Shown here one piece after another: positions 4,185 to 58,101 of a stretch of DNA of 64,000 nucleotides. Numbering within the stretch: position 1 is the first letter of the stretch; every line of letters begins with the position of its first letter. The stretch comes from a virus. The DNA lies in IMG/VR virus record IMGVR_UViG_3300031965_000004, positions 30,430 through 94,429 of that record; one strand, written 5' to 3'. A program made the position numbers and the translations under genes. Below the pieces are notes generated by a model that did no database searches, was not told where the DNA came from, and saw only the letters and a program-made list of their open reading frames with translations.

Positions 4185-4371
4185 GTTTCGCCCAGCGTGG
4201 ATCCTGAATCGCGATCGGGAGCCCCTCGCGGATCATTGCCACGGCGTTGTCGCTGAGCGCCTTCTTCGGATCAGGAATGAACCCGGCGTCCTCCGCGGCC
4301 TTGATCGTGGCCGTGACGAACTCTCGCATGAGGAACCGAGCCTCGAGTTTCGTTTCGTTGAGGGTGCTCAC
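4174..4371 (-). CDS. hypothetical protein
   Basis: Coupled ORF in the minus-strand operon. Confidence 0.55.
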   Translation of the reverse strand: MSTLNETKLEARFLMREFVTATIKAAEDAGFIPDPKKALSDNAVAMIREGLPIAIQDPRWAKLLA

Positions 4372-4817
4372 AGGGCAGCCGGCGCGATCGAGAGCAGGAT
4401 CGGGAACAGGACGCGAGCCGCGTCCTTGCCCAAGCCGATCATGTTGCTCAGGGCGTCAACAGCTCCTCGCACGCCGTCCGACGCTTCGTCGGCTGCGGCG
4501 TCGAGCTCGTCCCAGCCGGCCTCGTCGCGAAGCCAGATCAGGCGAGCTGCCTTCTCGTCGCCCGACGCCACGAGGCCGGCGACCGCGGTCAGGGCGTCGT
4601 GGCCAAGGCGCGTGATCCGAGGCTTGTTCGCCTCGACCCAATCGAAGCCTTGGTTGGCCGCGGCAACACCGGCAGGCTCGAGCGAGTCTTCGGCGAGCTT
4701 GGCGACCTTCTCTCGTCCAGCTTCTACGGCCTTGTCCACCCACTTGTCGCCGTGCTTGGCCAGGGCCTTGTCGGCGCCGACCAAGCCCTTGTCGGCGAGT
4801 TTGCTCATGAAGCTCAT
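4368..4817 (-). CDS. hypothetical helical protein with hydrophobic C-terminus
   Basis: 149 aa, coupled ORF. Confidence 0.6.
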   Translation of the reverse strand: MSFMSKLADKGLVGADKALAKHGDKWVDKAVEAGREKVAKLAEDSLEPAGVAAANQGFDWVEANKPRITRLGHDALTAVAGLVASGDEKAARLIWLRDEAGWDELDAAADEASDGVRGAVDALSNMIGLGKDAARVLFPILLSIAPAAL

Positions 4818-4822
4818 GGGGC

Positions 4823-5158
4823 CTACTCGCCCGAGGGGAGGGCTGGGAGCGTGACGACGCCGTCAAGGTCGGGGGGGAGCCCCGCGTCGTTGACGGCGTC
4901 GTTGGCTTCGTGCCAGCCGCGCCGGTTCTTTGCGAGCGTGTTGAGGAGCCGCTGCACGAAGACCCGCACGGAGGGCGGGGTGATCGCCAACTCGCCGCTG
5001 GCGAGCAACTCCGCGAGCGCCTCGACGGACTTGCGCGTGTAGCCGTCGTTGACGGCGGCCATGGTCTCCGCCTGGCTCTTGAGGGCCTTGCAGACGCACC
5101 CGGGCGCAAGGAGGGTCAGGCACAGAAGCGTGCCAAGGAGGGTCAGTTTGACGGGCAT
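4823..5158 (-). CDS. putative lipoprotein
   Basis: Signal peptide with lipobox-like LLAPGC. Confidence 0.55.
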   Translation of the reverse strand: MPVKLTLLGTLLCLTLLAPGCVCKALKSQAETMAAVNDGYTRKSVEALAELLASGELAITPPSVRVFVQRLLNTLAKNRRGWHEANDAVNDAGLPPDLDGVVTLPALPSGE

Positions 5159-5336
5159 GGTCTCTCGTTTGTCTGAGGTAGCGCTTGAGCCGGTAGGTTA
5201 CCGCCTGGGTCCGACGTAGGGCCACCCCGCAAAGGCGTAACCCTTGGGGCCCCTATAAGAAAGAAAGCAATGGAGAGAGGTTGCAGACAGTCACGGGAGA
5301 CTGTAGCCTCCTGCGAGCCCAGGGAGGTAACATGCC

Positions 5337-5612
5337 ATGGCCGTGGACAAGACCCCACCATCACGATCAAAGAAGAAGAGACCCGCCCGATCGAAGATGA
5401 CGGGGAGGTTTGTCTTCTGCCCGCACAGCAACCAGCACCACCCCTTGTTCGCGCTCGAGGTCGTTCAGAAGATCGAGACCGGGAACTTGTGGGTCAAGTG
5501 CCTCTGCGGGATCCGGATTCACTTCGACAACAACAAGCTACCCACCATGACCAAGGAACAGGCCGTCAAGGCCGGAGCCATGCTCCCCTTCGTCCTTCGT
5601 AAGGAGGCGTGA
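5337..5612 (+). CDS. small basic Zn-ribbon protein (possible regulator)
   Basis: GGAGG RBS; CPHS..H and CLCG; first gene of the + strand module. Confidence 0.55.
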   Translation: MAVDKTPPSRSKKKRPARSKMTGRFVFCPHSNQHHPLFALEVVQKIETGNLWVKCLCGIRIHFDNNKLPTMTKEQAVKAGAMLPFVLRKEA

Positions 5613-7891: not shown

Positions 7892-8065
7892 ATGAGCAAG
7901 AGCAAGACACAGGCAACGCGCGCGCTTGTCTTTGGCGGCCCCGTGGTCTTCGTCCTCGCGAAGCGGCTGCCGAAGGGCCAGACGTGGCGGCTTCCCCTCC
8001 TGCTCTTGGGGGGAGCCGGCCTCGCGTTGGGCGCGTGGCGCACCTACAGCGCCGGTCAGAAGTAG
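7892..8065 (+). CDS. small membrane protein (57 aa)
   Basis: MSKSKTQATRALVFGGPVVFVLAK...LLLLGGAGLALGAW; two hydrophobic stretches; below the ORF-track cutoff. Confidence 0.55.
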   Translation: MSKSKTQATRALVFGGPVVFVLAKRLPKGQTWRLPLLLLGGAGLALGAWRTYSAGQK

Positions 8066-20006: not shown

Positions 20007-20043
20007 GGGTCTTCTTCAACCCATTGCGGGTTGGGGATTTACG

Positions 20044-20080
20044 AGAGAGGCTTCCTCGCTGAGGGAGCCTCTCTTCGTTT
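20044..20080 (+). terminator. intrinsic terminator-like hairpin
   Basis: AGAGAGGCTTCCTC-GCT-GAGGGAGCCTCTCT then TCGTTT. Confidence 0.6.
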
Positions 20081-20138
20081 GTGGAAGGTCTTCTTGTCGG
20101 ACCTGTGCCTATGCTTCCCGGTGGCCAGGGGAGGCGCT

Positions 20139-21740
20139 GTGGACAAGCAGAAACGCCGGCAGCGGAGACTCAAGATCAAGCCGCAGGGGTGCATGTCGCG
20201 AGATAAGGCGTGGCTGTTGGGCTTCATGGCGGGTGACGGAAACGTGAGCGTGGCAGAAGACGGCGGCGCCCATGTGTCAGCCAACTGCGGAGTCGCGGAG
20301 GACTCCGCCAACATGGCGCTGGCTGAGCGCGTTGCGGAGCTTTTCCGGAGGATCTACGACGTCCCCGCTCACGTCCGGGTTCAGTCCCGGGATCCGGGGC
20401 GCCTTCCTTACTGCCAGCCGATTCTTTATCGGCGGGCAGTCGCTGACGACATACTGTCGCACGGTCCGATCGGGACTTACGATTGGACCGTTCCGGCGGA
20501 GGTTCGGCGAGACAAGGAACTCGCTGGGGCGTGGCTGTCAGGCTTGTGGGACGCAGAAGGAAACGTCTCCCTTGATCCTGACGTCTCGAGGCGAACGGTC
20601 AGCGTCAGCAGCGTGAACGAGCTTGGTTTGCGCGTGGTGAAGGCCATGGTCGAGTCGCTCGGGATTCGCTGTTCGTGGCATACGGACGACGGCAAGTCCG
20701 AGAGGAGCCCCGGCTGCCTGCCGGAGAACAAGGTGATGGTGTGCAGCCAGGCAGCCATGGGGGGCTTCGCCGAGAAAATCGGGTTCACCCACCAGGGCAA
20801 GGCGGCGAGTTTGGCGAGCCTGCTCGCGAGCTATAGCCGCGAGGTGCCTAACCTCCTGTCGCACGAGGTTAGAGAGTTGCTCCCCGAGATTCTGAAGCGG
20901 CGCGCAGCGGGGGCCCCGTTCTCGGCCATAGCGACGGAGTTGCAGTTTTCAACGCCAGAGGTGGCCAAGGGAATGGTCAAGCGGGCGTCGAAAGCCGCAG
21001 GCAATCAGTGCCTGATTTGCCTCGAGCGTCCTGCAACGCATTCGATCCCGCGAGTCATCAAGGGGCGGTCTGGTAAATACGTCTGCGAGCCGTGCCTGGT
21101 CTCTCTTGAGCCTGCCGAGGCTGTCCCCGAGTGGGGCGACGAGCTCGTGAAGCAGTCCGCGCGAAAGGTCGCTGACTTCTTGGACGAGCACCATTACCTC
21201 GGGCGTCGCGGCGGCGTGAGCGACTTCGCACTGCGCAACGCGGCCGGCGTCCTCGTCTTCTCACGCCGGCCGCAAGCAGCCGGCTTGCCGCGGGATTGGT
21301 TGGAACTGTCTCGGTGGTGCCTGGTCCCGGGCGGCGTCAACGTAGGCACCGCTCAGTGGGCGCAGGTCAAGCGCTGGTTGCTCGAGAACACGGACGCATC
21401 GACCGTCGTCAGCTACAGCGATCCGGCCCGACACGACGGGGCGATCTACCGGGCCGCCGGGTGGCTCTGGGCGCCTTCGTCCAGCTTCCTCTTGAAGAAC
21501 ATGAAATTGAGCGGAGAGCGCTACCCAGAGAAGCCCTACACCGACAAGAACCGCTGGGTCTACCCGCTCAGGCGAGACGAGCGCCGGGCTGAGGCGTTGA
21601 CCGTCCGAAACCCGTGGCTCTGCAACAGCGAGCGCTACAAGTTCCTGTGCGACTGGCCCGAGCCGACGTGGAAGCGCGGCCGAGCTACAGGAGGGGGCAA
21701 GGACTACAAGCGCTGGAAGGCGCTTCTCGCTTCTCGCTAG
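20139..21740 (+). CDS. LAGLIDADG endonuclease fused to Zn-finger and Mom-like (GNAT) DNA-modification domain
   Basis: WLLGFMAGDGNV and WLSGLWDAEGNV; CLIC/CEPC; HHYLG...LELSRW...VSYSDPARHDGAIYRAAGW; GTG with GGAGG RBS. Confidence 0.75.
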   Translation: MDKQKRRQRRLKIKPQGCMSRDKAWLLGFMAGDGNVSVAEDGGAHVSANCGVAEDSANMALAERVAELFRRIYDVPAHVRVQSRDPGRLPYCQPILYRRAVADDILSHGPIGTYDWTVPAEVRRDKELAGAWLSGLWDAEGNVSLDPDVSRRTVSVSSVNELGLRVVKAMVESLGIRCSWHTDDGKSERSPGCLPENKVMVCSQAAMGGFAEKIGFTHQGKAASLASLLASYSREVPNLLSHEVRELLPEILKRRAAGAPFSAIATELQFSTPEVAKGMVKRASKAAGNQCLICLERPATHSIPRVIKGRSGKYVCEPCLVSLEPAEAVPEWGDELVKQSARKVADFLDEHHYLGRRGGVSDFALRNAAGVLVFSRRPQAAGLPRDWLELSRWCLVPGGVNVGTAQWAQVKRWLLENTDASTVVSYSDPARHDGAIYRAAGWLWAPSSSFLLKNMKLSGERYPEKPYTDKNRWVYPLRRDERRAEALTVRNPWLCNSERYKFLCDWPEPTWKRGRATGGGKDYKRWKALLASR

Positions 21741-23874: not shown

Positions 23875-24197
23875 TGGGGATCCAGGCCAAATACCTACCG
23901 CCTGTCGCGGGTCTCGCCGCTGCCGCCGTTGTCACGGGGAAGTTCTCCGCCAACACGGCCGATCGCGTGCGAGGCGCCTTCGTGACGGACGCCGCGGGGA
24001 CGTTGGTCCTTCGCTGGCATTCCGAGACGGGCGTCCTGCTCCTCGAATACACGGTCCCCGTGGACGTGGCACAGACACACGCGCTCGTCTATCACTTCGA
24101 CGTGATCCGCCAGGGCTACTACTTCACCTACGAATTCACCCAGGGGGGGGCTCCCTCCACTTTCCTCCAGGCGGAAGTCGCCGCCCTAACTGATTGA
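23865..24197 (+). CDS. putative virion beta-protein
   Basis: GTG start overlapping the previous gene; beta-rich. Confidence 0.5.
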   Translation: MRVVGIQAKYLPPVAGLAAAAVVTGKFSANTADRVRGAFVTDAAGTLVLRWHSETGVLLLEYTVPVDVAQTHALVYHFDVIRQGYYFTYEFTQGGAPSTFLQAEVAALTD

Positions 24198-28132: not shown

Positions 28133-31100
28133 ATGGCTCAGCGCTCAATTACCCTCCCGCGAGTGGGCGGGCTCGGAGCTGTGAACCTCGTCGAGGGCAC
28201 CGACCAAGTTCTCTTGCCGCAGATCGAGGGCACGACGGCGGCGCGGTCGCTCTGGGCGGACGCCGCGGCCACGAGCGCCTTGCTGGCGAGCGGCACCAAC
28301 GTGGCCACGGTCACGTTGGGCGCAGCCGGGAGCACGGTCACGATCCCAGGCAGCCTGACGGTCTCGGGCACAGCGACCGCGATCAGCACGGCGAACTTGA
28401 CCGTGGCAGACACGGTGATTCTGGGAGCGTCAGGAGCCGCGACCGGAAACGAGGCCGGTATGGCCTTCGAGCGCGGGAGCACGGGCGACGACGCGATCCT
28501 GCTCTGGAACGAGGCGAACACCCGCTTCGAGCTCGGGTTCTTCAACACGGTCGGTGGAACGACCACGCCAACGGGGGCCCTCGCCGCACTGTCCGACCTC
28601 CGGGCCAAGGACCTGACGCTCGCGGGAACGATCACGGCAGACGGGGAACTGACAATCCGGAGCGGAGGGACTGGCGCCCTGCAAATGGTCGGGGCGAATG
28701 GCACGACCCCAGGCCAAATGCTTGTCCAAGCGGGGGGAAACACGGGAACGGGCGCGGGAGCCATTACTTATGTGTTCGGAGGCTCCTCCACAAGCGGATC
28801 CGGCCGAGGCGGAGACGCATTCTTCATTGGCGGAATCGCCGCCAGCGCAACAGGCGACGGCGGGGACGCAGCCGTAGACGGGGGCACCTCGGTCGGCGGG
28901 ACGGCCGGGTCCGTCCTGCTCGGAACGCAGGCTGGATACACAAGCGCGGTTGTGATTGGCCAGTCAGGGATCACGACCGACTTCCCGGCCGGGTCCACGG
29001 TTGACTTCACCGGGGCGACTGTCACTGGCCTGCCGGCGACTGACCTCAGCTCCGTGCTCGCGACCGGCAACAACTCGGGCGGCACAAGCATCGTCCTGTC
29101 AACACCAAGTGAGATTCAGTCAACGTCCGGCACGTCGGGCGACCCGATCTCGATTCAGGCTGGAAGCGCGTCGAGTGGAACCGGCGGAACGGTATCTATC
29201 GTCGGAGGACCCTCGTCTGGGGGCAACACCGGGCCGTCCGCGTCGATCGAGGCAGGAAGAGGAGGGGTGACGGGAGTCGGAGGTCCCTTCTTCGCGTTTG
29301 GCGGGCGCGGCGGAAGCACGAGTGGCGCAGCGGGGGAAGCGACGGTCCGAGGCGGCTTGCCGAACGACGGAAACGGCGGAGACGCCACGCTTGCCGGGTC
29401 GGCAGGGGCCACGGCAACTGCCACGGCAAGGGACGGCGGAAACGCCAACGTGGTCGGGGGGGGGGCAGTTTCCGGTGGAGTTCCCGGCCGCGTCCTCTTC
29501 ACGTCGGGCACGACGAGCTATCCGCTCACGGCGGCAGGTGTAGGCCCCGCTCTGACGACGACGGCCCAGACGATCATTGAGGCGATCAATGAGGTCGCGG
29601 CTGCTTCGCCGACTCTCAGCTCCGTGCTCGCGACCGGCAACACGACCGGTGCGAATGACGTGGTGGTGTCCTCAGGGCAGGTCCTTCGAGGCGTGGACGC
29701 GGCGACTGGGACGGCGCTCACGCTGCGCTCCGGCAACTCCTCAGGAGTAGGAGTTTCAGGCCCAACAACCACGATTCAAGGAGGGAGCCCCGGAAGTTCA
29801 TTGGGGGCCTGGACTGTCCGAGCAGCTTCGGAGGCAAACCCATGGCAGTCCGTGACTTGGTCGCCTGAGTTGGGCTTGTTCGCCGCTGTGTCAAGCACCG
29901 GCACGAATCGAGTCATGACTTCGCCGGACGGGATCAACTGGACGGCTCGGGCCGCCTCTGAAGCAAACTTCTGGAATGGGATCGCTTGGTCACCTGAATT
30001 GGGTCTATTCGCCGCTGTGGCTCAGGACGGCACGAATCGAGTCATGACTTCGCCGGACGGGATCAACTGGACGGCTCGGGCCGCCTCGGCGGCAAACGTG
30101 TGGCACGAGGTCACCTGGGCGGCTGAATTGGGCTTGTTCGTCGCTGTGGCTTGCACCGGCACGAATCGAGTCATGACTTCGCCGGACGGAATCAACTGGA
30201 CTGGACGCTTGTCTGGCAATGACGGTTTTTGCTGGCAGGACGTGACGTGGTCGCCGCAGTTGGGGTTGCTCGTCGGCGTGTCAAGCGACAACTTGGCCAT
30301 GACCTCACCGGACGGAATCACCTGGACGTCCCGCACTGTCCCCGGAGGGGTTGGGGTCTTGGCTTGGCAAGGGGTCACTTGGTCGCCCGAACTAGGTTTG
30401 TTCGTCGCTGTGGGCTCCGACGGCGCGAACCGGGTCGCGACCTCGCCAGACGGAATCAACTGGACGCTTCGGAACGCTTCGGGAGCAAATCTCTGGGACG
30501 AGGTCAGGTGGGCGCCTGAGTTGGGCTTGTTCGTCGCTGTGGCCCAGAACGGCACCAATCCGGTCATGACTTCGCCGGACGGAATCAACTGGAGCGCCGT
30601 GGCGGCGACGTTCCCTCAGTGGAGGTCTGTCGTTTGGGCGCCACAACTTGGCCTACTTGTATCTGTGGCTATAACTGGATCAGGCGCAAACCGAGTCATG
30701 ACGTCGCAAGCCACCTTCGGCGACGGCGGGGCAGTCGTAATCACGGCGCCAGCGGGTGACAGCGGCGGCGACGTCACGATCACGGCCGGCGCGGCAATCG
30801 GAGGCACTCAGGGCCGCGTCCTCTTCACGTCCGGCACGACCTCTTACCCGCTCACGGCGGCCGGTGTTGGGCCGCCGCTGACGACGACGGCCCAGACGAT
30901 CATTGAGGCGATCAATGAGGTCGACGCGGCGCTAGCGGGGGTCACAGAGGACGGCGGGACCCCGAATATCGTCACGATCACGGACGCGCTGGTAGTGGGG
31001 GCGCCCGCAAGCACTGTTGCGACCGGCGCAAGCGACATTGTCGCGGGACTCGCGGGAGGCTACTTCCTCCACTACGACCCGTCAGGAGCGATCCTACTCT

Positions 31101-33073
31101 TCGGGGAGGACTTCGGCGGAGGCCAAACCTACTTGGGCCTTTACGCCGTGGAAAACGGGACCCAGATCGACATGGCGTCGGACGCGGTCTTTGGTTGGTC
31201 CCCCTCGACCACGACCATTACCGGAAACGCCCAAGACACCAGGCTGAGCCGTCCCGCTGCGGGCGAGGTCCTCGTCGACGACGGCGCGGGAGGAGCCGCG
31301 ACCCTGACCGCCGCGACGGTCAAGCTTGGCACCGGTGGACCGACGCTGACGAAGGGGACGGGCAGCCCGGAGGGGGTCGTCACGGCCCCGGTTGGCTCGC
31401 TGTTCGCCCGCACGGACGGGGGCGCGGGAACGACGCTCTACAGCAAGGAGAGCGGCGCGGGAAACACCGGCTGGGCGACGGTGGGAGTCACGCCAACCCT
31501 GTCGTCCGTGCTCGCGGCCGGCAACACAACCGGCGCGAACGACGTGGTGGTGTCTTCGGGGCAGGTCCTTCGGGGTGTGGACGCGGCAGGTGGGACAGAC
31601 CTCGAACTCCGGGGGGGCAATGGTTCTGGCGCGGGAATGGGCGCTGGCGGTGTCTTCATTAACGCGGGGACTCCTACAGCCGACGGCAACGGGCCCAATG
31701 TTGAAATTTACGCCGGAAACGGAGCGGGGAATGGGCACGGCGGCTTACTCACGCTTGAGTCAGGCACGGCGGGAGCCGTGGGCAACGGAGGGGACCTAGA
31801 TATCCGGGCCAGGAACGGCGGCGCCACCAGTGGTAACGGTGGCGACCTCACGCTCACGGCCGGCACGGGAACGGGGGGCGGCACTCATGGCCGCGTCACC
31901 CTCACGTCCGGCACGACGAGCTATCCGCTCACGGCTGCCGGCGTTGGACCGGCCCTGACAACAACTGCTCAGACGATCATTGAGGCAATCAACGAGATCG
32001 ACGCGGCCGGCGGGGCGTCCTCCCTCAGTTCCGTGCTCGCGGCCGGCAACACAACCGGCGGCACTGATCTTGTCCAGACCTCGGGTGACGTTATTCGAGG
32101 AGTCGACGCTGCGACAGGAACCGCGCTGGCGTTGAGGGGCGGTGCGTCGTCCGCGGCAGGTGCAGGAGGGGCAGTCACGATCACGGGGGGTGCTCCTGTT
32201 AACGGAGACGGAGGCGCAGTATCGCTTGTTGGCTCCAATGCTGTCACAAACGGCAGTGGAGGCACCGCTACGGTTCAAGGCGGTGACGGGTTAGGGAACG
32301 TTGGCGGGACTGCTTCGCTTCTGGGTGGAAATTCTGGCACGCAAGCCGGCGGCGCTGCTGTCGTTCAAGCGGGGACTTCTGGGAACGGCGACGGTGGGAA
32401 TGTCACGATCGTTGCGGGGGCGGGAGTCGGCGCAAACAAGAGCGGCGGGACCGTCACGATCGTTGCGGGGGTATCCACGTCAATGTTTACAGGGAGTTTG
32501 GTCAGCATTACTGCCGGACAAGGCGGACCATCCGGCGGCACTGGCGGCACGTTGCAGTTGCGAGGCGGTCCGGGTGGGGCCTCCTCCGGGGTCGGAGGTC
32601 CCGTCATTATCTCGGGTGGGATCCCGATTAGCGGCGGCGGTGGCGCTGTCACAATCACGGCCTCAGACGCCGTCTCCGGCGTTGGCGGCAATGGTGGCGT
32701 GCTCACGCTCACGTCGGGTGCGGGGGCGGTCGCCAACCCCGGAGGCGCGCTCACGATCAGGTCCGGTGCAGGTGGCGCCTCGAGCGGGAACTCGGGAGCG
32801 GTTACGATCGACGCGGGAGCGGTTACGGGCGGGACGGCAGGCACGATCACGATCGGCGGGACGAATGCCAGTGCTGTCAACCTGGGACGTTCGGCAGGCA
32901 CGATCGGGTTCTTCGGGGCTGCGGCGGTCGCTCAGTCGGCGGCCTACACCCTGACCGCAACTGCGGTTCTTGACCGGACCCTGCTGGCTAGCGCCAGCGC
33001 GACCGTGACGAACAACAACAACGCGCTGGCCGCGTTGATCACCGACCTCCAAGCGCTAGGCTTGATCGGGTAA
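28133..33073 (+). CDS. large modular spike / fibre with Gly-rich repeats and a 7-bladed beta-propeller
   Basis: 1646 aa; seven W..V.W.PELGLF.AV...VMTSPDGINW blades; three TTSYPLTAAGVGP.LTTTAQTIIEAINE linkers; GSPEGVVTAPVGS motif. Confidence 0.8.
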   Translation: MAQRSITLPRVGGLGAVNLVEGTDQVLLPQIEGTTAARSLWADAAATSALLASGTNVATVTLGAAGSTVTIPGSLTVSGTATAISTANLTVADTVILGASGAATGNEAGMAFERGSTGDDAILLWNEANTRFELGFFNTVGGTTTPTGALAALSDLRAKDLTLAGTITADGELTIRSGGTGALQMVGANGTTPGQMLVQAGGNTGTGAGAITYVFGGSSTSGSGRGGDAFFIGGIAASATGDGGDAAVDGGTSVGGTAGSVLLGTQAGYTSAVVIGQSGITTDFPAGSTVDFTGATVTGLPATDLSSVLATGNNSGGTSIVLSTPSEIQSTSGTSGDPISIQAGSASSGTGGTVSIVGGPSSGGNTGPSASIEAGRGGVTGVGGPFFAFGGRGGSTSGAAGEATVRGGLPNDGNGGDATLAGSAGATATATARDGGNANVVGGGAVSGGVPGRVLFTSGTTSYPLTAAGVGPALTTTAQTIIEAINEVAAASPTLSSVLATGNTTGANDVVVSSGQVLRGVDAATGTALTLRSGNSSGVGVSGPTTTIQGGSPGSSLGAWTVRAASEANPWQSVTWSPELGLFAAVSSTGTNRVMTSPDGINWTARAASEANFWNGIAWSPELGLFAAVAQDGTNRVMTSPDGINWTARAASAANVWHEVTWAAELGLFVAVACTGTNRVMTSPDGINWTGRLSGNDGFCWQDVTWSPQLGLLVGVSSDNLAMTSPDGITWTSRTVPGGVGVLAWQGVTWSPELGLFVAVGSDGANRVATSPDGINWTLRNASGANLWDEVRWAPELGLFVAVAQNGTNPVMTSPDGINWSAVAATFPQWRSVVWAPQLGLLVSVAITGSGANRVMTSQATFGDGGAVVITAPAGDSGGDVTITAGAAIGGTQGRVLFTSGTTSYPLTAAGVGPPLTTTAQTIIEAINEVDAALAGVTEDGGTPNIVTITDALVVGAPASTVATGASDIVAGLAGGYFLHYDPSGAILLFGEDFGGGQTYLGLYAVENGTQIDMASDAVFGWSPSTTTITGNAQDTRLSRPAAGEVLVDDGAGGAATLTAATVKLGTGGPTLTKGTGSPEGVVTAPVGSLFARTDGGAGTTLYSKESGAGNTGWATVGVTPTLSSVLAAGNTTGANDVVVSSGQVLRGVDAAGGTDLELRGGNGSGAGMGAGGVFINAGTPTADGNGPNVEIYAGNGAGNGHGGLLTLESGTAGAVGNGGDLDIRARNGGATSGNGGDLTLTAGTGTGGGTHGRVTLTSGTTSYPLTAAGVGPALTTTAQTIIEAINEIDAAGGASSLSSVLAAGNTTGGTDLVQTSGDVIRGVDAATGTALALRGGASSAAGAGGAVTITGGAPVNGDGGAVSLVGSNAVTNGSGGTATVQGGDGLGNVGGTASLLGGNSGTQAGGAAVVQAGTSGNGDGGNVTIVAGAGVGANKSGGTVTIVAGVSTSMFTGSLVSITAGQGGPSGGTGGTLQLRGGPGGASSGVGGPVIISGGIPISGGGGAVTITASDAVSGVGGNGGVLTLTSGAGAVANPGGALTIRSGAGGASSGNSGAVTIDAGAVTGGTAGTITIGGTNASAVNLGRSAGTIGFFGAAAVAQSAAYTLTATAVLDRTLLASASATVTNNNNALAALITDLQALGLIG

Positions 33074-35802: not shown

Positions 35803-35895
35803 GGTCGCGGATCGGAAGCCGCGACGGCGCATCGGCAGTGTCAGACCGGTCGGGCAGACTCCGAGGTCGCGATCGTAGGGGAGGGTGACGGCTGG

Positions 35896-35931
35896 CTCTC
35901 AACGCCCGCGCAGAGGCTTTGTGTCTGCGAC
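35896..35931 (+). CRISPR. solitary CRISPR repeat unit
   Basis: CTCTCAACGCCCGCGCAGAGGCTTTGTGTCTGCGAC matches the array repeat at 51.6-54.7 kb. Confidence 0.85.
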
Positions 35932-35993
35932 CCCGGCAGTAGGGGTTCGACTCCCCTCAGGCTTTTAGCCCTAGCTCCGGTTGCTGTGCTCGC

Positions 35994-50453: not shown

Positions 50454-50639
50454 CTACTTCAGCCGCAGCGGGCTCTGCTTGAGCCCGTGCGTGAGGGCGA
50501 AGGCCCCGACGCCGAGCGCGGCCCAGAACACGGGCTGGGGCGGATACTTGCCGGTCGCCTTGTAGACCTGTTGCAGAGCCCACCCGCTCGCGAGGCCGGC
50601 GACGGCGCTCATGGCGGCGTTTCTGGCGAGCGAGCCCAC
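50454..50639 (-). CDS. small membrane protein
   Basis: Two hydrophobic segments. Confidence 0.55.
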   Translation of the reverse strand: MGSLARNAAMSAVAGLASGWALQQVYKATGKYPPQPVFWAALGVGAFALTHGLKQSPLRLK

Positions 50640-51121
50640 TAGAAGCCCTCGCCGCCCATGCCCGAGACGCCCATGCCGCCAAACGACTCGGCCGCGTAGG
50701 GGTGCGCGTTGGGGTCAGTGGCGGCCGGCGCTTGCTGCTGCGAGCTCGCCTGGAGGTCCCCCCAGCTCGGCGCGCGCTGAACCGAGCGCGAGTGACGAGC
50801 GGAGCTTGCGGGCAGGGCCACGATCGGGATCCCGTTGGGATCCATGCCCATCAGGCCCCCGCCCATGGCCGGGTTGGAGTCGTCGACCAGCATGGTTCCC
50901 CCGGGCGCTTGCACCTGCTGCAAGGTCGCTTGCTGCGGCTGCCCGGGGCCGGGCGCGGGGCCTTGTCCGAGGGTCTTCCAGGCGTTCCACGCCATGAACG
51001 CGACGCCGGCCGTCGCCAGCCAGCCCACGGGGCTCATTTGCGGGATCCCCCACTTGCTCTTTTCTGCCACCAGGAGCTCCTTGTGGGCCGTGTGAGGCCC
51101 ACCGTCCTTCGATCTTCGCAC
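50639..51121 (-). CDS. membrane protein with GMG motifs
   Basis: N-terminal TM; GGMGVSGMGG at the C-terminus; start uncertain. Confidence 0.55.
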   Translation of the reverse strand: MRRSKDGGPHTAHKELLVAEKSKWGIPQMSPVGWLATAGVAFMAWNAWKTLGQGPAPGPGQPQQATLQQVQAPGGTMLVDDSNPAMGGGLMGMDPNGIPIVALPASSARHSRSVQRAPSWGDLQASSQQQAPAATDPNAHPYAAESFGGMGVSGMGGEGF

Positions 51122-51176
51122 ACCTGACCCCAGCGGGGCCAGCGAAGAGAGCAGAGATTACGGACTCTCCAATGAC

Positions 51177-51208
51177 GTTGCAGACACGAAGCCTCTGCAC
51201 GGGCGTCG
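51177..51208 (-). CRISPR. detached repeat unit distal to the downstream array
   Basis: GTTGCAGACACGAAGCCTCTGCACGGGCGTCG on the + strand. Confidence 0.8.
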
Positions 51209-51212
51209 CCTG

Positions 51213-51590
51213 CTAGACCCTCGGCCGCGGATACGAAGCCGCGGCCTTGCGGAGAAGCGTGACGAGCACGTCGATTCGATCGGTTCGCTTGAGGATCGTG
51301 GCGAGGTCGGCGCGGATCTCTACGTCGAGGCGCTCCTGCTCGTTGACGAGCCGGTCGAGGACCCCGTGGATCAAGGCGAGGTCAGCGGAAGTCGTCGTCC
51401 TGAGGACTCGCACACCGCTGCCAACGTGTTGTTCGCCCGCGGGCCGGCCCGGCCGCCCGCACGCGCACCGCTGATGCTCGTCCTCGTTCGGGTCGCTGAG
51501 GATCAAGTCGAACTTGGACTCTTCGACTTGCCCCGGGAGAAGGAAGGTTTCAATCTCGAGTAGAACAAGAACAGCGATCGTGTCGGGCAT
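51213..51590 (-). CDS. hypothetical protein lying between CRISPR repeats
   Basis: 125-aa ORF between the repeats at 51608 and 51177. Confidence 0.55.
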   Translation of the reverse strand: MPDTIAVLVLLEIETFLLPGQVEESKFDLILSDPNEDEHQRCACGRPGRPAGEQHVGSGVRVLRTTTSADLALIHGVLDRLVNEQERLDVEIRADLATILKRTDRIDVLVTLLRKAAASYPRPRV

Positions 51591-51607
51591 GAGGTCTCTC
51601 GAATGAC

Positions 51608-52161
51608 GTCGCAGAAACGAGGCCCCTGCGCGGGCGTTGGGATCCGTCTACGTCTGGCCACAGATACGAAGCCTCTGCACAGGCGTTGGAGAAGTCGTCA
51701 TCGGCGCAGAAACGAAGCCACTGCGCGGGCGTTGGGGGCGGTGAACTCAACGCCGAGAGTCGCAGACACGAGGCCCCTGCGCGGGCGTTGAAGGAAGCTG
51801 GCGGCGAAAGGAGGGGCGCGCGAGCCCTGACGGGTCGCAGACACGAGGCCCCTGCGCAGGCGTTGAACTCTACCCGTCGAGAGTTGCAGACACGAAGCCT
51901 CTGCACGGGCGTTGGGTGATTCCTTCCTCCCGTCGCAGGCACGAGGCCCCTGCGCGGGCGTTCACTCCCTGCACTCTGTCGCAGACACCAAGCCTCCGCG
52001 CGGGCGTTGAGGGCGCGCAGTCTACATCCCTGACGACCTGGCAACCAGGGTCGCAGATACCAAGCCTCCGCGCGGGCGTTGAGGGCAGAGGGGTTCTCCC
52101 CGGATTGGTTGCGCGTACGGCCCGTGTCGCAGATACCAAGCCTCCGCGCGGGCGTTGAGGG
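51608..52161 (-). CRISPR. CRISPR array downstream of the cas12-like gene, 10 repeats
   Basis: 32-nt cores at 51608, 51657, 51703, 51759, 51834, 51883, 51932, 51978, 52050, 52126; leader-proximal 36-nt repeat (minus) CCCTCAACGCCCGCGCGGAGGCTTGGTATCTGCGAC; gaps between cores 17, 14, 24, 43, 17, 17, 14, 40, 44 nt. Confidence 0.9.
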
Positions 52162-52335
52162 AGAGGGGTTCATAACTTATTGACCGCAAGTGATTTAGTC
52201 GAGTCATTTCGAGCGCATGGGAAAGGGAAGGGCCGCGGGGCGGCGAGCAATCTTCGGATCTTCGTAAGTCGTTGTGGCGACGGACGCGAGCACCTCCGGC
52301 GGTTTCGAGAGGCCGGAGGTGCTCGCGCGGCAAGG
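52162..52335 (-). promoter_or_regulatory. putative array leader
   Basis: Non-coding, locally AT-rich (CATAACTTATTGACC...GATTTAGTC) between the effector stop and the most homogeneous repeats. Confidence 0.5.
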
Positions 52336-54246
52336 TCAACTTCTGGCGAGCTCGACCAGGGCGCCGGCCTCGTGCGCGGCGTTCTCCCTCGCCGCGGCGC
52401 TTGCCGCCCGCCGTTCGGCTCGGTTCGGTCCGGTCGTCGTGTAGGTCATGAGGTCGCCAGGGGCGTAGGGCTCACGCACCCAGCCGCCGTCCGGGCCGGC
52501 GCCGAGAATGTTCCTGGCTGCGTTTACGTCCTGGTCCCACCGCAGGCCGCACGCCGAGCAGGTATGCAGGAGGAGGAGGTGGTCCGTCCACTCGCTGTCG
52601 ACCGACCCGCAAGCGTGACAGCGCGTGGTCGTCTCCGCCGCTTCAACTGCGCTCACGTCCGCCCCGCGGCCTTTGAGCGACTCGATCAGGCTCGAGAGAC
52701 AGGCGTTGCGCGCGTTGCGCTTCATGCGGTCTGCCTTCGCGGTCTGCCCCTCCTCGACAAGCGGGAGAACGTGAAACTCGCGCAGGTCGAGCTTCTCGAT
52801 CCGAATCTCCCTGTAGGTCCGGGTCATGCGGGCGGCGAAGCGCCGGTAGAGGTCCTTGCGGCTCGCTTGGAGCTGGGTGCGCGTGTGGGCCTCGTAGTCG
52901 AGGAGGTGCCGCTCGCGCAGCCGCCAAGCCTCGATCTCGGCAGGCACGGCTTCTCCCTTGTCGGCGAGCGCGCGGGTCAAGCTCCGCACCCGGGCCTGGG
53001 ACCGCGTGTGAGAAAGGCCCGTGGACACGGGCTTCCCGTCCCGCCGTGGGGGCACGCGACCCTGGGCCTCGAGCGCCTTGACCCACTCGAAAACGAAGGG
53101 CCGGATCGCGTCGAGGAGTCGATCGCGCTCGCTCTGGATCCGCTTGACCTTCTCCATTTCTGCACACCAGCGCGCCGGGAGCGCGAGCTCGCCCTCGGCG
53201 CCGTCTGAACCGGCCCAGACCGCGACGCGCAGTCGCCCGTCTGACATGCGTCGCCAGCCGACGTCGACTCCAACGCGGCCATTGGAGGCCAGGTCGGGCT
53301 TGGTCCACGCGCCCTTCTCGGCGCTGAGGACAAACTGGACCGACCACACGTCCTGGCAGCCCAGGTTTCTGCGGGTGCAGAAGACCCGCTTGACGACGGC
53401 GTCAGGCGGGAGGGGCCGGTGATAGACGAAGGGGATCTCCGCCCAGATCGCGGACCGTGACGAGTCGGCCTGCGAGCCGATTCGCAGGCTCAGCGATCCC
53501 TGGAGGCGCCCTGCGGCACGCTTGGACCCAGGGATCGCCGAAGGTCGGTGCGAGACTACGAGCTTCGCCTGCGTGGAGGTCCCCGAGAGGAGTTTCGCCA
53601 CGCTCATGCCGCCCGGGACTTGGACCTCGATCTTGTCCTTGCGACACGACCAGGGCCGAAACTTGGGGGGCGAGCCCTTGCGCATGCTCTTGCATGCGTC
53701 GTCCACGGCCCCGCCTGTGCCCCAATAGAGGCCATTCAGGGCGCGGGCCGCCTTTCGCGCGACGTCCTCTTTGGCTTCGATCAGCGCATACGCTTCGATC
53801 CAGGCGGGGTCTGCGAACAGCTCCGCCCGGATCGCCTTGCGCGAGGCGTAAAGCGCCTTGCGCGAGGCGCGAGCAACCTTGAGCGCCTCGCTCAAGGTTG
53901 GATCCTTGACGTTCTTCGAGCGCTTCGCCTTCCGAAGGCGTTTGACCGCCGACTCGAGGCGCTCGATCTCCCCGATCACCCCCCAGCCGGCCTCCGCGGG
54001 AGCCCCCGAGTCGGGGTCGGCTTTGCTGCTCGCGGCCCCGATCAAGTCCTCGACCGCGAGCAGCTCGGGCGAGAGCCTCGCGAGCAGCTCGTCGGCCTCG
54101 GCGCGACGCTCGAGCTCGATCTCGCAGCGCTTGTTCCGGTAGACGTGCGCTCGCTGGAATTGCTCCTGGACGCCGTCCAGGTTGGAGGTCGGAGGCCGGG
54201 CGCCGTATTTGAAGACGCGACCGTCTCCCTGCATTTTGTTTCTCAT
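52336..54246 (-). CDS. Cas12m-like (type V-U1/V-M, TnpB-derived) RNA-guided RuvC effector, ~636 aa
   Basis: VFKYG..P...AHVYRNKRCEIE, GLYWGT, HRPLPPDAVVK; RuvC-I GVDVGWR, RuvC-II IEKLDL, Zn finger CHAC/CSAC, RuvC-III DQDVNAARNIL; flanked by arrays. Confidence 0.85.
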   Translation of the reverse strand: MRNKMQGDGRVFKYGARPPTSNLDGVQEQFQRAHVYRNKRCEIELERRAEADELLARLSPELLAVEDLIGAASSKADPDSGAPAEAGWGVIGEIERLESAVKRLRKAKRSKNVKDPTLSEALKVARASRKALYASRKAIRAELFADPAWIEAYALIEAKEDVARKAARALNGLYWGTGGAVDDACKSMRKGSPPKFRPWSCRKDKIEVQVPGGMSVAKLLSGTSTQAKLVVSHRPSAIPGSKRAAGRLQGSLSLRIGSQADSSRSAIWAEIPFVYHRPLPPDAVVKRVFCTRRNLGCQDVWSVQFVLSAEKGAWTKPDLASNGRVGVDVGWRRMSDGRLRVAVWAGSDGAEGELALPARWCAEMEKVKRIQSERDRLLDAIRPFVFEWVKALEAQGRVPPRRDGKPVSTGLSHTRSQARVRSLTRALADKGEAVPAEIEAWRLRERHLLDYEAHTRTQLQASRKDLYRRFAARMTRTYREIRIEKLDLREFHVLPLVEEGQTAKADRMKRNARNACLSSLIESLKGRGADVSAVEAAETTTRCHACGSVDSEWTDHLLLLHTCSACGLRWDQDVNAARNILGAGPDGGWVREPYAPGDLMTYTTTGPNRAERRAASAAARENAAHEAGALVELARS

Positions 54247-54290
54247 GGCGTAACTCTTAGGGGGGCTAGGTGGTGGGAAAGGAGATCCTG

Positions 54291-54662
54291 GTCGCGGACA
54301 CGAAGCCTCCGCACGGGCGTTCGAGGTGGTGGGCGGGTCGGTAACAGAAACGAAGCCTCTGTGCGGGCGTGAGTTGCTGCTTGAAGACGGGGCGCGGATA
54401 CAAAGCCTCTGCGCGGGCGTGGAGGAAGCCGCATCCGTCTTCGTGGTTGCAGACACGAAGCCTCCGCACGGGCGTTGAAGGCGTTCTTCCAGGTGATCGC
54501 AGACAGGAAGCCTCTGCGCGGGCGTTTCGCCCCTCTCTCGACGTCGCAGACAGGAAGCCTCTGCGCAGGCGTGGTCGATCCCTCATGCAGTCAGTAACAG
54601 AAACAAAGCCTCTGCGCAGGCGTTCGTAGGGTCGCAGACTGGAAGCCTCTGCGCGGGCGTCA
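54291..54662 (-). CRISPR. CRISPR array upstream of the cas12-like gene, 8 diverged repeats with short spacers
   Basis: Cores at 54291, 54341, 54391, 54446, 54496, 54543, 54594, 54631; gaps 18, 18, 23, 18, 15, 19, 5 nt. Confidence 0.85.
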
Positions 54663-54863
54663 GGACGCAGGGGGTCCGGGTCGGCGGAACTTCATGGGGT
54701 GGCCTGCGGGAAGGGCACAGGCCGCCCGCTCGAACCAGAAGGCGGCTTCTCGGATCCGCCCCTCAGGACCTGGGCCCCACACGACGGGGCCCGGGTCAGG
54801 GGCCGTTCGGCGAAGGGCGTCGCGGAGCTGCTCGAGCTCGTGATCGTAGAGATCGTCGGTCAT
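54660..54863 (-). CDS. hypothetical protein
   Basis: Stop codon overlaps the first repeat of the upstream array. Confidence 0.45.
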   Translation of the reverse strand: MTDDLYDHELEQLRDALRRTAPDPGPVVWGPGPEGRIREAAFWFERAACALPAGHPMKFRRPGPPAS

Positions 54864-55882
54864 ACCCACTCGACGACCTCGCCCGGCTTGTCGTGCGAGT
54901 GGAGTTCGGCCAAGTGATCGGCGACCTCAGCCAGCGCCTCGCGAACGTCGGCACCGACGTTCGCGCCGAGCGGATCCAGCGCCGCCAAGAGGTCGCGACG
55001 GGCGTGCTCGGTCTCCTCGACCTCACGCGCCGTTTGCGCCGCCTCCTCTTGGGGGGTAGGGGGGGGCGAGGGAAGCGGGAGACTCCAACGACGCTCATGG
55101 CTCGCCATAAGCGTCCGGGCGGACCTAATCACGAGAACCGCGGCCTCATCGGCCTCCGACGCCTTCGCCTCCGCGCGCTCGGCCGCCCATTGGGCGAGAG
55201 CGGACGCGAGGGCCTCCGCCCAGGCACCCGCGTCCGGGCCGGGAAACGCCAACCCGCGGAGCGCCAGCGCGTAGTAGCCCTGGCGGTCGAGGGCCTCAAT
55301 CCAGTGCATGGCGACGTGGACTGGCTGGCCCCCCTTCGGGGCCCCGTTTCGGGGCCCCGCCCGGACTCCGCCCGGAGTCGGCGTCAGTTCCGCGGCGGTC
55401 AGCGCCGCTTCGTAGGCGTCCGTCGCGGCGCGCCAAACCGTCTCGTGCAAAAGCAGCCGAATCGCCCGCTGGGCGGCTTCTCGATACGCCTCGCCGTCCG
55501 CGGCGTTCCAGCGGGCGGCGCCCAACCCAGCCGCCCAGGGCTGGCGGGCGGAGCGACCGTTGCAGCCGCCCATGCCGCCGGGGCCGCCGCAGCCGGCGAG
55601 GTCCACCTGAATCAGGGCGGCGCAGGCGAGGCGGACCTCGCGGGACCACTTGGCCACCGCCTCGGCGACGCTCTCGTTTCGCCACGTCGGCGAGACGGTG
55701 ATGGGCACGACCGCGACCGCGCGGCGGGCGGCGTGGCAGGTGGCGAGCACGCGCCACTTCGCTCGATCCGCCGCGGTCCCGCGGATTGCGTCGAGGACGG
55801 TCTCCGGGGCGCAACCCGCTGTCTCTAGCCGCTTCTTGAGGGCGGCGGCGGTCTCAGGCGGAGGTGCGGCCAGAGGGCTCAT
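54860..55882 (-). CDS. Ala-rich hypothetical protein
   Basis: ATGA-coupled ORF. Confidence 0.55.
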   Translation of the reverse strand: MSPLAAPPPETAAALKKRLETAGCAPETVLDAIRGTAADRAKWRVLATCHAARRAVAVVPITVSPTWRNESVAEAVAKWSREVRLACAALIQVDLAGCGGPGGMGGCNGRSARQPWAAGLGAARWNAADGEAYREAAQRAIRLLLHETVWRAATDAYEAALTAAELTPTPGGVRAGPRNGAPKGGQPVHVAMHWIEALDRQGYYALALRGLAFPGPDAGAWAEALASALAQWAAERAEAKASEADEAAVLVIRSARTLMASHERRWSLPLPSPPPTPQEEAAQTAREVEETEHARRDLLAALDPLGANVGADVREALAEVADHLAELHSHDKPGEVVEWV

Positions 55883-56172
55883 GCGTCGTCCTCGCGGACG
55901 ACGCTGACCTCGCGCCAGTCCCCGTCGCACTCCGGCGGGTCGGCAGCTCCGTTGGCGTCGTATCCCTCGAGCGCGCCGAGCTCCGAGTCGTCGAGGTCGC
56001 AGAGCGCCCACGTCACGGTGCCGTCACTGCGATCGTGCGTCCGACAGACGACGACGCCGAGCTCCGAGTCGATCCCGTAGGACTCCTCGACCATTTGCCC
56101 CTGGCAGGATCGCGGAATTCCGAGACGGAGCCAGTAAGGGATTTCGTAGGTCGGCTTGGTCGGCTTGGTCAT
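55879..56172 (-). CDS. acidic hypothetical protein
   Basis: MTKPTKPTYEIP... Confidence 0.5.
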   Translation of the reverse strand: MTKPTKPTYEIPYWLRLGIPRSCQGQMVEESYGIDSELGVVVCRTHDRSDGTVTWALCDLDDSELGALEGYDANGAADPPECDGDWREVSVVREDDA

Positions 56173-56497: not shown

Positions 56498-57390
56498 TCA
56501 CTGCCCGACTCCCTTCGCGGCGCACGCCCCGCAAACGGGGGTGAGCTCGCTGTAGGTGAGGTAGCGCCCCTCACCGTCGCAGCCCTGCGTGTGGCACGGT
56601 AGCGGGGGTAGCGGGGGGCCGGTCTCGTCCTCGTCCTCGTCGTCCTCGTCCTCCGTGAGAGAGATGAACCACGAGGGCCCGGCCTTGGCGAGGGCCTCGT
56701 CGAGCTGCTTCTGATCGGCGGGCGGGAGCTCGTCGAACTTGGCGTTCCACTCGTCGTCGCCCAAGCCCGGCCACGGATCTCGCTCGAGGTAGGGGTTCTG
56801 CGGCAGGGCCAGGACCTTCCCCGCCTTGGGCTTGGCCTTGGGCGCCTTGGGCGCCTTGGGCGCCTTGGGCGCCTTGGGCGCCTTGGGCGCCTTGGGCGCC
56901 TTGGGCGCCTTGGGGGGAGCCATGACCGGGGCCGGGGGCTCGGGAGCCGGGGCGGGAGCGGGAGCGGGAGCGGGAGCGGGAGCGGGAGCGGGAGCGGGAG
57001 CCTTGCCTTTGGGGGCCTTGGGGGCCTTGGGAGCCTTGCCTTTGGGGGCCTTGGGGGCCTTGGCCTTGGTCTTAGGCGGGGGGACGGGGGGGACCGGGGC
57101 CTTTGGGGGAGCCTTGGCCGCCTTGGGCTTGGGGGCCGCTGCGAGGGCCCCCGCGTCACCCGCGGGGCAGATCAGCAGTTGCTCCTTCGTCCAGCGGCGG
57201 TGAGATCGCCGTTGCAGGTGCTCGCCGACGAGCACCTGCCAGATCGGGCCCGAGGCGCCCTTGTCCGGGCCGCGCGCGATCGTGACGATCTCGCGCGAGC
57301 AGTGGCCATGGGGGTCCCTCAAGTCGGCCCACCAGCGCTCACCCCTGCGGGGTCGTTGGCCGGTGCCGGTCAGGGTCTGCGATTGCGTGC

Positions 57391-57394
<4 letters not shown>
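56498..57394 (-). CDS. low-complexity KAP/PA-repeat protein
   Basis: (KAP)n from 9-bp repeats at ~56820-56890; (PA)n from 6-bp repeats at ~56950-57000; AGGAG RBS. Confidence 0.6.
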
Positions 57395-58028: not shown

Positions 58029-58101
58029 TAGTCCCGGCGGGATTCGAACCCACAACGATCAGCTTAGAAGGCTGATGCCCTATCCATTGGGCTACGGGAC
58101 C
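58029..58101 (-). tRNA. tRNA-Arg (anticodon UCU), CCA not encoded
   Basis: GGTCCCG-TA-GCCCAATGGATAGGGC-A-TCAGC-CTTCTAA-GCTGA-TCGTT-GTGGG-TTCGAAT-CCCGC-CGGGACT-A folds as a cloverleaf. Confidence 0.92.

Follow-up and report, generated by a model that had tools for sequence, protein, structure and literature searches.

Cas12m is the effector of type V-M CRISPR systems, and a gene encoding it, cas12m, lies between two CRISPR arrays in a 64-kb stretch of DNA, hereafter the window, that comprises bases 30430–94429 of the 94,429-bp IMG/VR virus record IMGVR_UViG_3300031965_000004 (source, a soil virus; GC content, 68%). Positions given below are those of the window unless they are called record positions. 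The interpretation favored here, with moderate confidence, is that this virus-borne type V-M locus carries arrays that have been compacted to units the size of a mature CRISPR RNA (crRNA) and that still function as guides for an effector that binds DNA without cutting it.

Unit Length and the Size of the Mature Cas12m crRNA

A sequence-only reading of this DNA had described eight repeats upstream of cas12m and ten downstream, all in the orientation of the gene and mostly separated by ultra-short spacers, and both the counts and the orientation have been borne out. These repeats, designated U1–U8 and D1–D10, delimit sixteen repeat-to-repeat units, twelve of which measure 46, 46, 47, 49, 49, 49, 50, 50, 50, 51, 55, and 56 nt; the remaining four consist of three canonical units of 72–76 nt and a single unit of 37 nt.

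The sizes of 46–56 nt (mostly 46–51 nt) fit a crRNA of about 50 nt. In PmCas12m, the mature crRNA is about 50 nt long, with about 33 nt of repeat and about 17 nt of guide, and is produced by cuts past repeat nucleotides 2–3 and at guide nucleotides 17–18, the optimum guide being 17 nt (bioRxiv 10.64898/2026.03.26.714355). Cas12m2 likewise forms a heteroduplex of only 17 bp, and repeat nucleotides -36 to -30 are disordered in its structure (PMC10442227). When units of at most 85 nt were tallied in 14 arrays of relatives located by a covariance model, 104 of the 179 units measured 70–78 nt and 22 measured 46–50 nt, while only one fell below 46 nt. This floor equals the sum of 29 ordered scaffold nucleotides and 17 guide nucleotides, and decay without constraint would not halt at 46 nt. 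Because the units match the size of a finished crRNA and stop at this floor, the supposedly ultra-short spacers are most likely full working guides placed head to tail.

The mechanism envisaged is one in which arrays and solitary repeats would be transcribed in the sense of the local genes, each crRNA being expected, by homology to characterized Cas12m systems, to consist of a 5′ scaffold (a pseudoknot plus a stem, ending in GAC) followed by a 3′ guide. Most units would have shed the parts that Cas12m leaves unused, namely the 3′ half of a canonical 36–40-nt spacer and, at the repeat’s 5′ end, 4–7 dispensable nucleotides, which would leave a unit of 46–56 nt with about 29–33 nt of scaffold and about 13–23 nt of guide, the size of a mature Cas12m crRNA. 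By analogy with the Cas12m proteins tested so far, the effector, supplied with roughly 20 guides, would bind DNA flanked by a protospacer-adjacent motif (PAM), leave it uncut, and block transcription or replication, with competing mobile elements or host genes as the likely targets. Taken together, the units do not look like fresh acquisitions but like an inherited set that recombination has reshuffled.

Structure and Conservation of the Repeat

The repeat has a 32-nt core, or 36 nt when its weakly conserved 5′ end is included, and aligns with the 36-nt repeats of 40 arrays from relatives, which share the orientation of the gene, are located on its downstream side, and terminate in GCGAC or GAGAC. 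Pairing across 52 repeats of this family reaches 89% in a 3-bp pseudoknot stem and 95.5% in a 6-bp stem; all nine pairs covary, the observed score being reached by none of 500 shuffles, and the combination of pseudoknot and stem matches the crRNA architecture of Cas12m2 (PMC10442227). A covariance model of the family repeats retrieves 22 copies from the record at 30.6–46 bits, comprising the ten downstream copies, the eight upstream copies, and four solitary copies (at 51177, 35896, 45372, and record position 24005), and since the next best match scores only 13.7 bits, these copies are not chance matches.

Among the 22 copies, the 6-bp stem is 97% paired on the gene strand, and four of its six pairs vary on both sides, a result reached by none of 500 shuffles. 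A strand test of the five pairs of the tested structure found 97.3% paired on the gene strand as opposed to 90.9% on the opposite strand, a drop that arises because variants form G-U pairs only in the sense of the gene. It follows that the RNA runs in the same sense as cas12m and that folding has been preserved in the drifted copies. The functional RNA strand of the arrays on both sides is the gene strand, in keeping with the co-orientation that the sequence-only reading had reported. Conservation begins at repeat position -32/-30, and identity is 50% at positions -36 to -33, the level of the flanking sequence, and 90% at positions -29 to -1. Because their hairpin is retained through compensatory and strand-specific G-U changes, the drifted repeats look selected rather than decayed.

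Two GC-rich hairpins at or just past the ends of open reading frames (ORFs), at 35803–35825 and 51222–51245, resemble on their minus strand the 3′ stem-loop half of the repeat and carry no 5′ half; truncation of a repeat may have produced them, or they may be terminator-like hairpins.

The Effector and the Fate of Long and Short Guides

The assignment of the effector to Cas12m by the sequence-only reading holds. Among PADLOC profiles, the effector best matches Cas12u1, as Cas12m was formerly called (E 2.6e-81, residues 10–582 against positions 4–528 of the 533-position profile), and its best solved relative is the Cas12m of PDB 23vw_A (E 2.6e-45), followed by UnCas12m4a and Cas12m2 at about 1e-12 (Cas12m2, E 6.6e-12), with TnpB chains at E 0.46 or worse. 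The RuvC triad D328-E484-D573 (D-E-D) is intact, and the C-terminal Zn-ribbon (TNB) domain is recognized by Pfam Cas12f1-like_TNB PF07282 (E 2.2e-11, residues 524–580). In an alignment with 22 relatives (A1), D328 and D573 are invariant, E484 is kept in at least 90%, and four Cys residues are conserved. The motifs KYG..P, AH.YRN...EIE, GLYWGT, HRPLP, and GWR, on which the assignment had been based, are all present and fall on conserved columns of the family alignment. The profile comparison with TnpB and Cas12 subtypes that had been proposed as a check placed Cas12u1 first, the NCBIfam models guided_TnpB (cut-off, 100) and IS200_TnpB (cut-off, 425) scoring 38.4 and 26.9 bits, respectively. Since these TnpB models score far below their cut-offs and CRISPR-type repeats flank the gene, a TnpB of the IS200/IS605 kind with an omega RNA, which the sequence-only reading had named as the case that would overturn it, was not borne out. 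Homologues are frequent on large viral contigs (46 IMG/VR loci, on contigs of up to 245 kb), and protein P0002, which is 90% identical to the effector, is encoded on a 22.5-kb contig.

All Cas12m proteins tested with D-E-D, H-D-D, or N-D-D sites bind double-stranded DNA and none cuts it (PMC11013384), and by extension from these proteins, the present effector would be expected to bind DNA in a PAM-dependent manner without cleaving it. This expectation bears on the function that the sequence-only reading had proposed, in which long guides would serve interference, through cleavage or strong silencing, and short guides would act as repressors that only bind. Two length classes do occur in one locus, the D-E-D triad is intact, and Omura et al. 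leave open whether D-E-D clades hydrolyze DNA (PMC10442227). However, the tested D-E-D variants are among those that do not cut, and the depositors of the closest solved relative, PDB 23vw_A, itself a D-E-D protein, named it “DNA-binding protein Cas12m.” Moreover, unit lengths in the relatives do not fall into two functional classes but vary continuously between 46 and 69 nt, and the guide is trimmed to about 17 nt and pairs over only 17 bp irrespective of spacer length. Because Cas12m pairs with and trims to 17 nt, long and short spacers should yield the same guide of roughly 17 nt, and a division of labor between them was not borne out and is very improbable.

Layout of the Locus

The features of the locus and the solitary repeats are collected in Table 1. 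Counted from the leader side, the downstream units measure 76, 72, 46, 49, 49, 75, 56, 46, and 49 nt (core starts of D1–D10 at 52126, 52050, 51978, 51932, 51883, 51834, 51759, 51703, 51657, and 51608), and the upstream units measure 37, 51, 47, 50, 55, 50, and 50 nt (core starts of U1–U8 at 54631, 54594, 54543, 54496, 54446, 54391, 54341, and 54291). The gaps between the 32-nt cores are exactly those that the sequence-only reading had listed, with three long gaps of 44, 40, and 43 nt, twelve of 14–24 nt, and one of 5 nt. The 5′ untranslated region (UTR) of cas12m follows directly after U8, and the ATG lies 45 nt past this repeat.

Table 1. Positions of cas12m, its arrays, and associated features (window coordinates unless marked).
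Feature	Position	Strand	Basis and context
cas12m (type V-M/V-U1 effector)	52336..54246	-	636 aa, ATG at 54246; PADLOC, PDB, Pfam, alignment
Downstream array, repeats D1–D10	51608..52161	-	3′ side of cas12m; core search, covariance model, hairpin covariation
Upstream array, repeats U1–U8	54291..54666	-	5′ side of cas12m; core search and covariance model
Putative leader of downstream array	52162..52335	-	Locally AT-rich, from cas12m stop codon to D1
Small ORF, 125 aa	51213..51590	-	Between D10 and solitary repeat 51177; ribosome-binding site (RBS) and ATG within about 20 nt past D10
Solitary repeat	51177..51212	-	Directly past stop codon of 125-aa ORF; covariance model
Solitary repeat	45372..45407	+	Inside plus-strand operon; 46 bits, the best score in the record
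Solitary repeat	35896..35931	+	End of plus-strand gene group; tRNA-Leu-like T-arm next to it, 35941–35957
Solitary repeat	24005–24040 (record position)	+	Outside the window; covariance model

The locus departs from a canonical adaptive array in that thirteen of the sixteen units measure 37–56 nt, the repeats differ at up to 6 of 32 nt, and Cas1 and Cas2 are absent. Neither protein was found across the whole 94,429-bp record, which extends to the full record the absence that the sequence-only reading had noted in the window. Its remark that a two-sided layout is unusual for type V is likewise supported, because relatives normally carry one downstream array with units of 72–74 nt.

The leader role of the stretch between cas12m and D1 is putative, being suggested by its position and by the relatives, in which arrays begin about 100–250 nt past the gene; a terminator-like hairpin lies within it at 52244–52232. 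No sigma-70 consensus promoter was found in 51000–55000, and no Rfam family matched in 50500–55200. A tracrRNA-like (trans-activating CRISPR RNA) anti-repeat was sought as an opposite-sense repeat in or near the locus, with up to 10 mismatches in 32 nt and with the covariance model, and none was found, although a short anti-repeat could escape such a search. Among the surrounding ORFs, those at 51213–51590, 50639–51121, and 54860–56011 matched no Pfam or PADLOC family, and the ORF at 54660–54869, compared with PADLOC only, matched none there.

Arrays of Relatives and of a Related Strain

Compaction is seen in several arrays of the relatives, where it probably comes with age. In the long arrays L011 (52 repeats), L009, and L094, units of 70–74 nt next to the gene give way to units of 46–62 nt at the far end, and in a 180-kb phage (L091), units measure 46–49 nt wherever neighboring repeats were detected. 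The same gradient is present in the downstream array described here, in which canonical units occupy the two positions nearest the leader and the D1–D3 repeats are near-identical and least drifted, whereas D4–D10 have drifted. The present locus is an extreme case of this compaction, and no compact Cas12m arrays of this kind are described in the literature searched. A search of IMG/VR for sister viruses by repeat pattern returned 0 matches.

A related strain was recovered from a sediment metagenome of another study (run X2), in which a sequence about 93% identical over cas12m is present and one contig covers D1, the leader, cas12m, and units U8 to U5. The comparison used contig alignments at ≥80% identity, in which repeat placement is ambiguous and the spacer sequences and their junctions are what count. 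Units D3, D4, U1-U2, and U5–U8 are shared by the two strains. The X2 strain has four extra units between D3 and D4, with spacers of 16, 37, 14, and 24 nt, and a single 25-nt spacer in place of units U3 and U4; it has no solitary repeat at 51177, the segment 51171–51247 being replaced by 25 other nucleotides. Compact units are thus kept across about 7% nucleotide divergence, and the arrays change by blocks of whole units, as recombination between repeats would yield.

The main rival explanation holds that the arrays have decayed, so that only the two or three leader-proximal units work and the drifted short units are dead remnants eroded by deletion in a virus unable to acquire spacers. The short units do have the most diverged repeats while those nearest the leader are canonical, and degeneration at the far end is usual in CRISPR arrays and recurs as the gradient of the relatives. 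The record holds no adaptation module, one unit of 37 nt cannot encode a guide, and no targets were found in the virus, IMG/VR, or GenBank phages. Random erosion, however, should produce many partial repeats as well as frequent units of less than 46 nt, yet such units number only 1 of 179 among the relatives and 1 of 16 here. Nor would it account for a stem that is 97% paired with two-sided compensatory changes and strand-specific G-U pairs, for a scaffold about 90% identical over positions -30 to -1 while positions -36 to -33 lie at flank level, or for the retention of D3, D4, U1-U2, and U5–U8 in the diverged strain. On balance, decay of the arrays is doubtful.

Spacers and Targets

Targets for the guides were sought in three collections. 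When all guides were compared with both strands of the 94-kb record, by matching the first 10 nt with at most one mismatch and then extending, only chance-level matches of 12–16 nt with two mismatches were obtained. In IMG/VR, there were 0 protospacer matches for the first 24 nt of the long spacers D1, D2, and D6 and 0 for 24 nt of the 37-nt spacer of the X2 strain, and BLAST of the whole downstream array against GenBank phages returned only matches at E ≥2. Autoregulation of cas12m was considered and rejected; a 10-mer that U7 has in common with the cas12m 5′ UTR lies at the PAM-distal end and is read as duplication history.

The GC content of the compact guides is below that of the genome (59% vs. 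67%, P about 0.008 by resampling), which would weakly fit intergenic or foreign targets. Spacers have nine 8-mers in common, compared with 2.8 in shuffled spacers. Both D9 and U5 contain AGACGGAT, and an 8-nt inverted repeat, GAAGACGG / CCGTCTTC, is present in the spacers flanking U6 (54373–54445) and might base-pair across U6 in the RNA.

Several points weigh against compact units that work as guides for a non-cutting viral effector. Because no protospacer was found in the virus, IMG/VR, or GenBank phages, function is deduced from structure and sizes only, and the excess of shared 8-mers fits a duplication history as well as it fits function. If 33 nt of repeat are retained, several units leave a guide of 13–16 nt, under the 17-nt optimum, and the 37-nt unit from U1 to U2 is too short for any guide. 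The catalytic triad is intact, and the presumed failure of this effector to cut is extrapolated from other D-E-D Cas12m proteins. The covariation within the record comes from 22 related copies, and their kinship inflates the shuffle tests. Finally, the label “virus” rests on the IMG/VR classification together with genes for replication and DNA modification of phage type; among sixteen large ORFs, no capsid, portal, or terminase was matched (PHROGs, Pfam).

Solitary Repeats and a Possible Role at the RNA Level

All four solitary copies are co-oriented with their neighboring genes, and three of them (35896, 45372, and record position 24005) lie beyond the range that the sequence-only reading had given for the locus. 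The copy at 45372 sits in an insert of about 140 bp, at whose borders an RBS-ATGA gene junction is duplicated over 17 bp. Both this copy and that at record position 24005 start 5–9 nt past an ATGA stop-start overlap, with the downstream ORF reading through the repeat, and because of this position, a cut in either repeat would part the start codon from its ORF. On a 341-kb metagenome contig (relative L012), a single repeat at 7908–7941 lies immediately upstream of the cas12m start, as U8 does here, and the recurrence hints at a repeat embedded in the 5′ UTR of the effector’s own gene. The solitary copies may be dispersed guide units, or they may be sites at which Cas12m processes or occludes viral mRNAs.

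The second of these possibilities can be extended to the arrays as a whole, the repeats then being Cas12m-dependent processing or occlusion sites on viral transcripts, or decoys for a host Cas12m, and the sequences between them not being DNA guides. The placement of solitary repeats at gene junctions in the sense of the genes, and of two of them just past ATGA overlaps, is in line with this proposal, as are the RBS and ATG of the small ORF after D10, the cas12m 5′ UTR after U8, its counterpart in L012, and the inverted repeat that brackets U6. The strict length floor of the tandem units, equal to a scaffold plus a 17-nt guide, speaks against it, since a pure processing site needs no such floor; decoys would be superfluous in a virus that has its own effector, and no host repeat is known. 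As an account of the arrays, the proposal is quite improbable, and it may apply to the solitary copies while the arrays are still read as guides.

A wider reading, which is more speculative and also rather unlikely, treats the locus as a hard-wired multi-guide silencing device and not as immunity. During infection, promoters of the host or of rival elements would be silenced through about 15 guides that are compact and inherited, while the repeats at gene starts and junctions and before cas12m would make specific viral mRNAs processing substrates of Cas12m. The combination would provide a protein-level feedback or timing switch, and the shortening of units to the 46-nt minimum would represent a design that evolved under selection.

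The solitary repeat at 35896 is followed, at 35932–35965, by a stretch that resembles the end of the variable arm, the T-arm, and the start of the acceptor stem of a tRNA-Leu, and ARAGORN called no tRNA at 35932–35965. A 22-nt stretch of the T-arm region is identical to a tRNA-Leu(TAG) gene and also to a tRNA-Leu 3′ fragment in two genomes. The tRNA-like stretch could be a tRNA fragment of the kind found at phage attachment sites (attP-like), a guide against a tRNA gene, or a structure at the end of an RNA; no integrase family was found in the single adjacent ORF tested. Assignment of a host through the T-arm was rejected, as the exact 22-nt match occurs in only three genomes from unrelated phyla and one of these, the Labedaea genome, lacks both Cas12m and the repeat.

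Comparison With Known Systems and Significance

The bacterial type V-M systems, represented by MmCas12m2, GoCas12m, MsCas12m, and PmCas12m (PMC10442227; PMC11013384; bioRxiv 10.64898/2026.03.26.714355), resemble the present locus in having a homologous effector with RuvC and Zn-ribbon domains and a length of about 600 aa, a 36-nt repeat folding into a pseudoknot plus a stem, a co-oriented array downstream of the gene, and neither a tracrRNA-like anti-repeat nor adaptation genes nearby. They differ in that their units measure about 72–74 nt, compared with mostly 46–56 nt here, and the viral carrier, the drifted repeats with compensatory changes, the second array upstream, and the four solitary repeats set the present locus apart from them.

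MvCas12m of the myxophage lineage MV-1 is presented as the first phage Cas12m in a September 2026 preprint (bioRxiv 10.64898/2026.09.14.751636). Like the present effector, it is a virus-encoded D-E-D protein with an adjoining CRISPR array, no cas1, cas2, or cas4, and no spacer targets found, but it is 610 aa long and its array is conventional, with one consensus repeat and eight spacers; compact units, an upstream array, and solitary repeats are not reported for it (bioRxiv 10.64898/2026.09.14.751636). Virus Rctr197k (KX853510.1, L135), a 197-kb Caudoviricetes record, also encodes a Cas12m homologue, 32% identical (E 1e-50) and annotated as “similar to transposase.” A 1.5-kb annotated CRISPR adjoins it, with repeats that match the family model in the orientation of the gene, although the spacing is 71–74 nt where neighboring repeats were detected and the array is downstream only. 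The annotated CRISPR in Rctr197k (3947–7363) is written on the strand opposite to the one favored by the family model.

Short or atypical crRNAs of fixed function include the homing crRNAs of type V-K CRISPR-associated transposons, the crRNA-like CreA/CreR regulators, and the small CRISPR/Cas-associated RNA (scaRNA) and tracr-L of Cas9. These have a degenerate repeat and a short guide, are inherited rather than acquired, and bind without cleavage, and they occur as single units with a known target, such as a tRNA or attachment site or the promoter of a cas or toxin gene. Here, in contrast, there are about 15 tandem units, and no guide matched the cas12m promoter region through its PAM-proximal end. 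Phages also carry solitary repeat units and RNA anti-CRISPRs, which are repeat copies outside arrays that mimic host repeats and act against host Cas proteins. The solitary copies described here are similarly virus-borne repeats outside an array, but this virus encodes the matching effector itself.

The compact array layout is best regarded as an undescribed form of a known Cas12m system. If the compact units work as guides, viruses that cannot adapt would keep Cas12m guide sets for a long time, pared to the needs of the effector. CRISPR finders set for uniform repeats and spacers of 30–40 nt would tend to miss such arrays, and viral RNA-guided systems may be under-counted for this reason. The layout would also offer a blueprint for dense multiplex arrays, at about 48 nt per guide and with repeat variation tolerated, of possible use in the miniature Cas12m tools under development for CRISPR interference, base editing, and epigenome editing. 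The 46-nt floor would in turn show, independently and through evolution, how small a functional crRNA can be, namely a 29-nt scaffold with a 17-nt guide.

Genome Context

The sequence-only reading had taken the DNA to be viral, and this agrees with its origin in an IMG/VR virus record. Because the first 143 nt of the record (1–143) and the last 143 nt (94287–94429; window 63858–64000) are 98.6% identical, with two mismatches, the record is probably a complete genome that is circularly permuted, circular, or terminally redundant; IMG/VR lists it as linear and 74% complete. Recognized phage-type genes include those for a helicase, an exonuclease, a Holliday-junction resolvase, a DpdA-like queuine tRNA-ribosyltransferase, a LAGLIDADG-plus-Mom-like protein, and a patatin. 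The virion module is not recognizable from sequence, and the large plus-strand ORFs at 1–33000, which include one of 1646 aa at 28133–33073, match no Pfam or PHROG family.

A LAGLIDADG domain is followed by a Mom-like domain within one protein at 20007–21737 (plus strand), and the DpdA-like queuine tRNA-ribosyltransferase is encoded at L003 14535–15926 (plus strand). Together, these proteins suggest that the viral DNA is modified, which could also protect the virus from DNA-targeting defenses. The virus further carries a tRNA-Arg(TCT) gene at 58029–58101 (minus strand). Two perfect tandem repeats, a 9-nt GCCTTGGGC in 8.9 copies (56835–56914) and the 6-nt CGGGAG in 10 copies (56941–57000), both lie within the span of a minus-strand ORF at 56498–57394.

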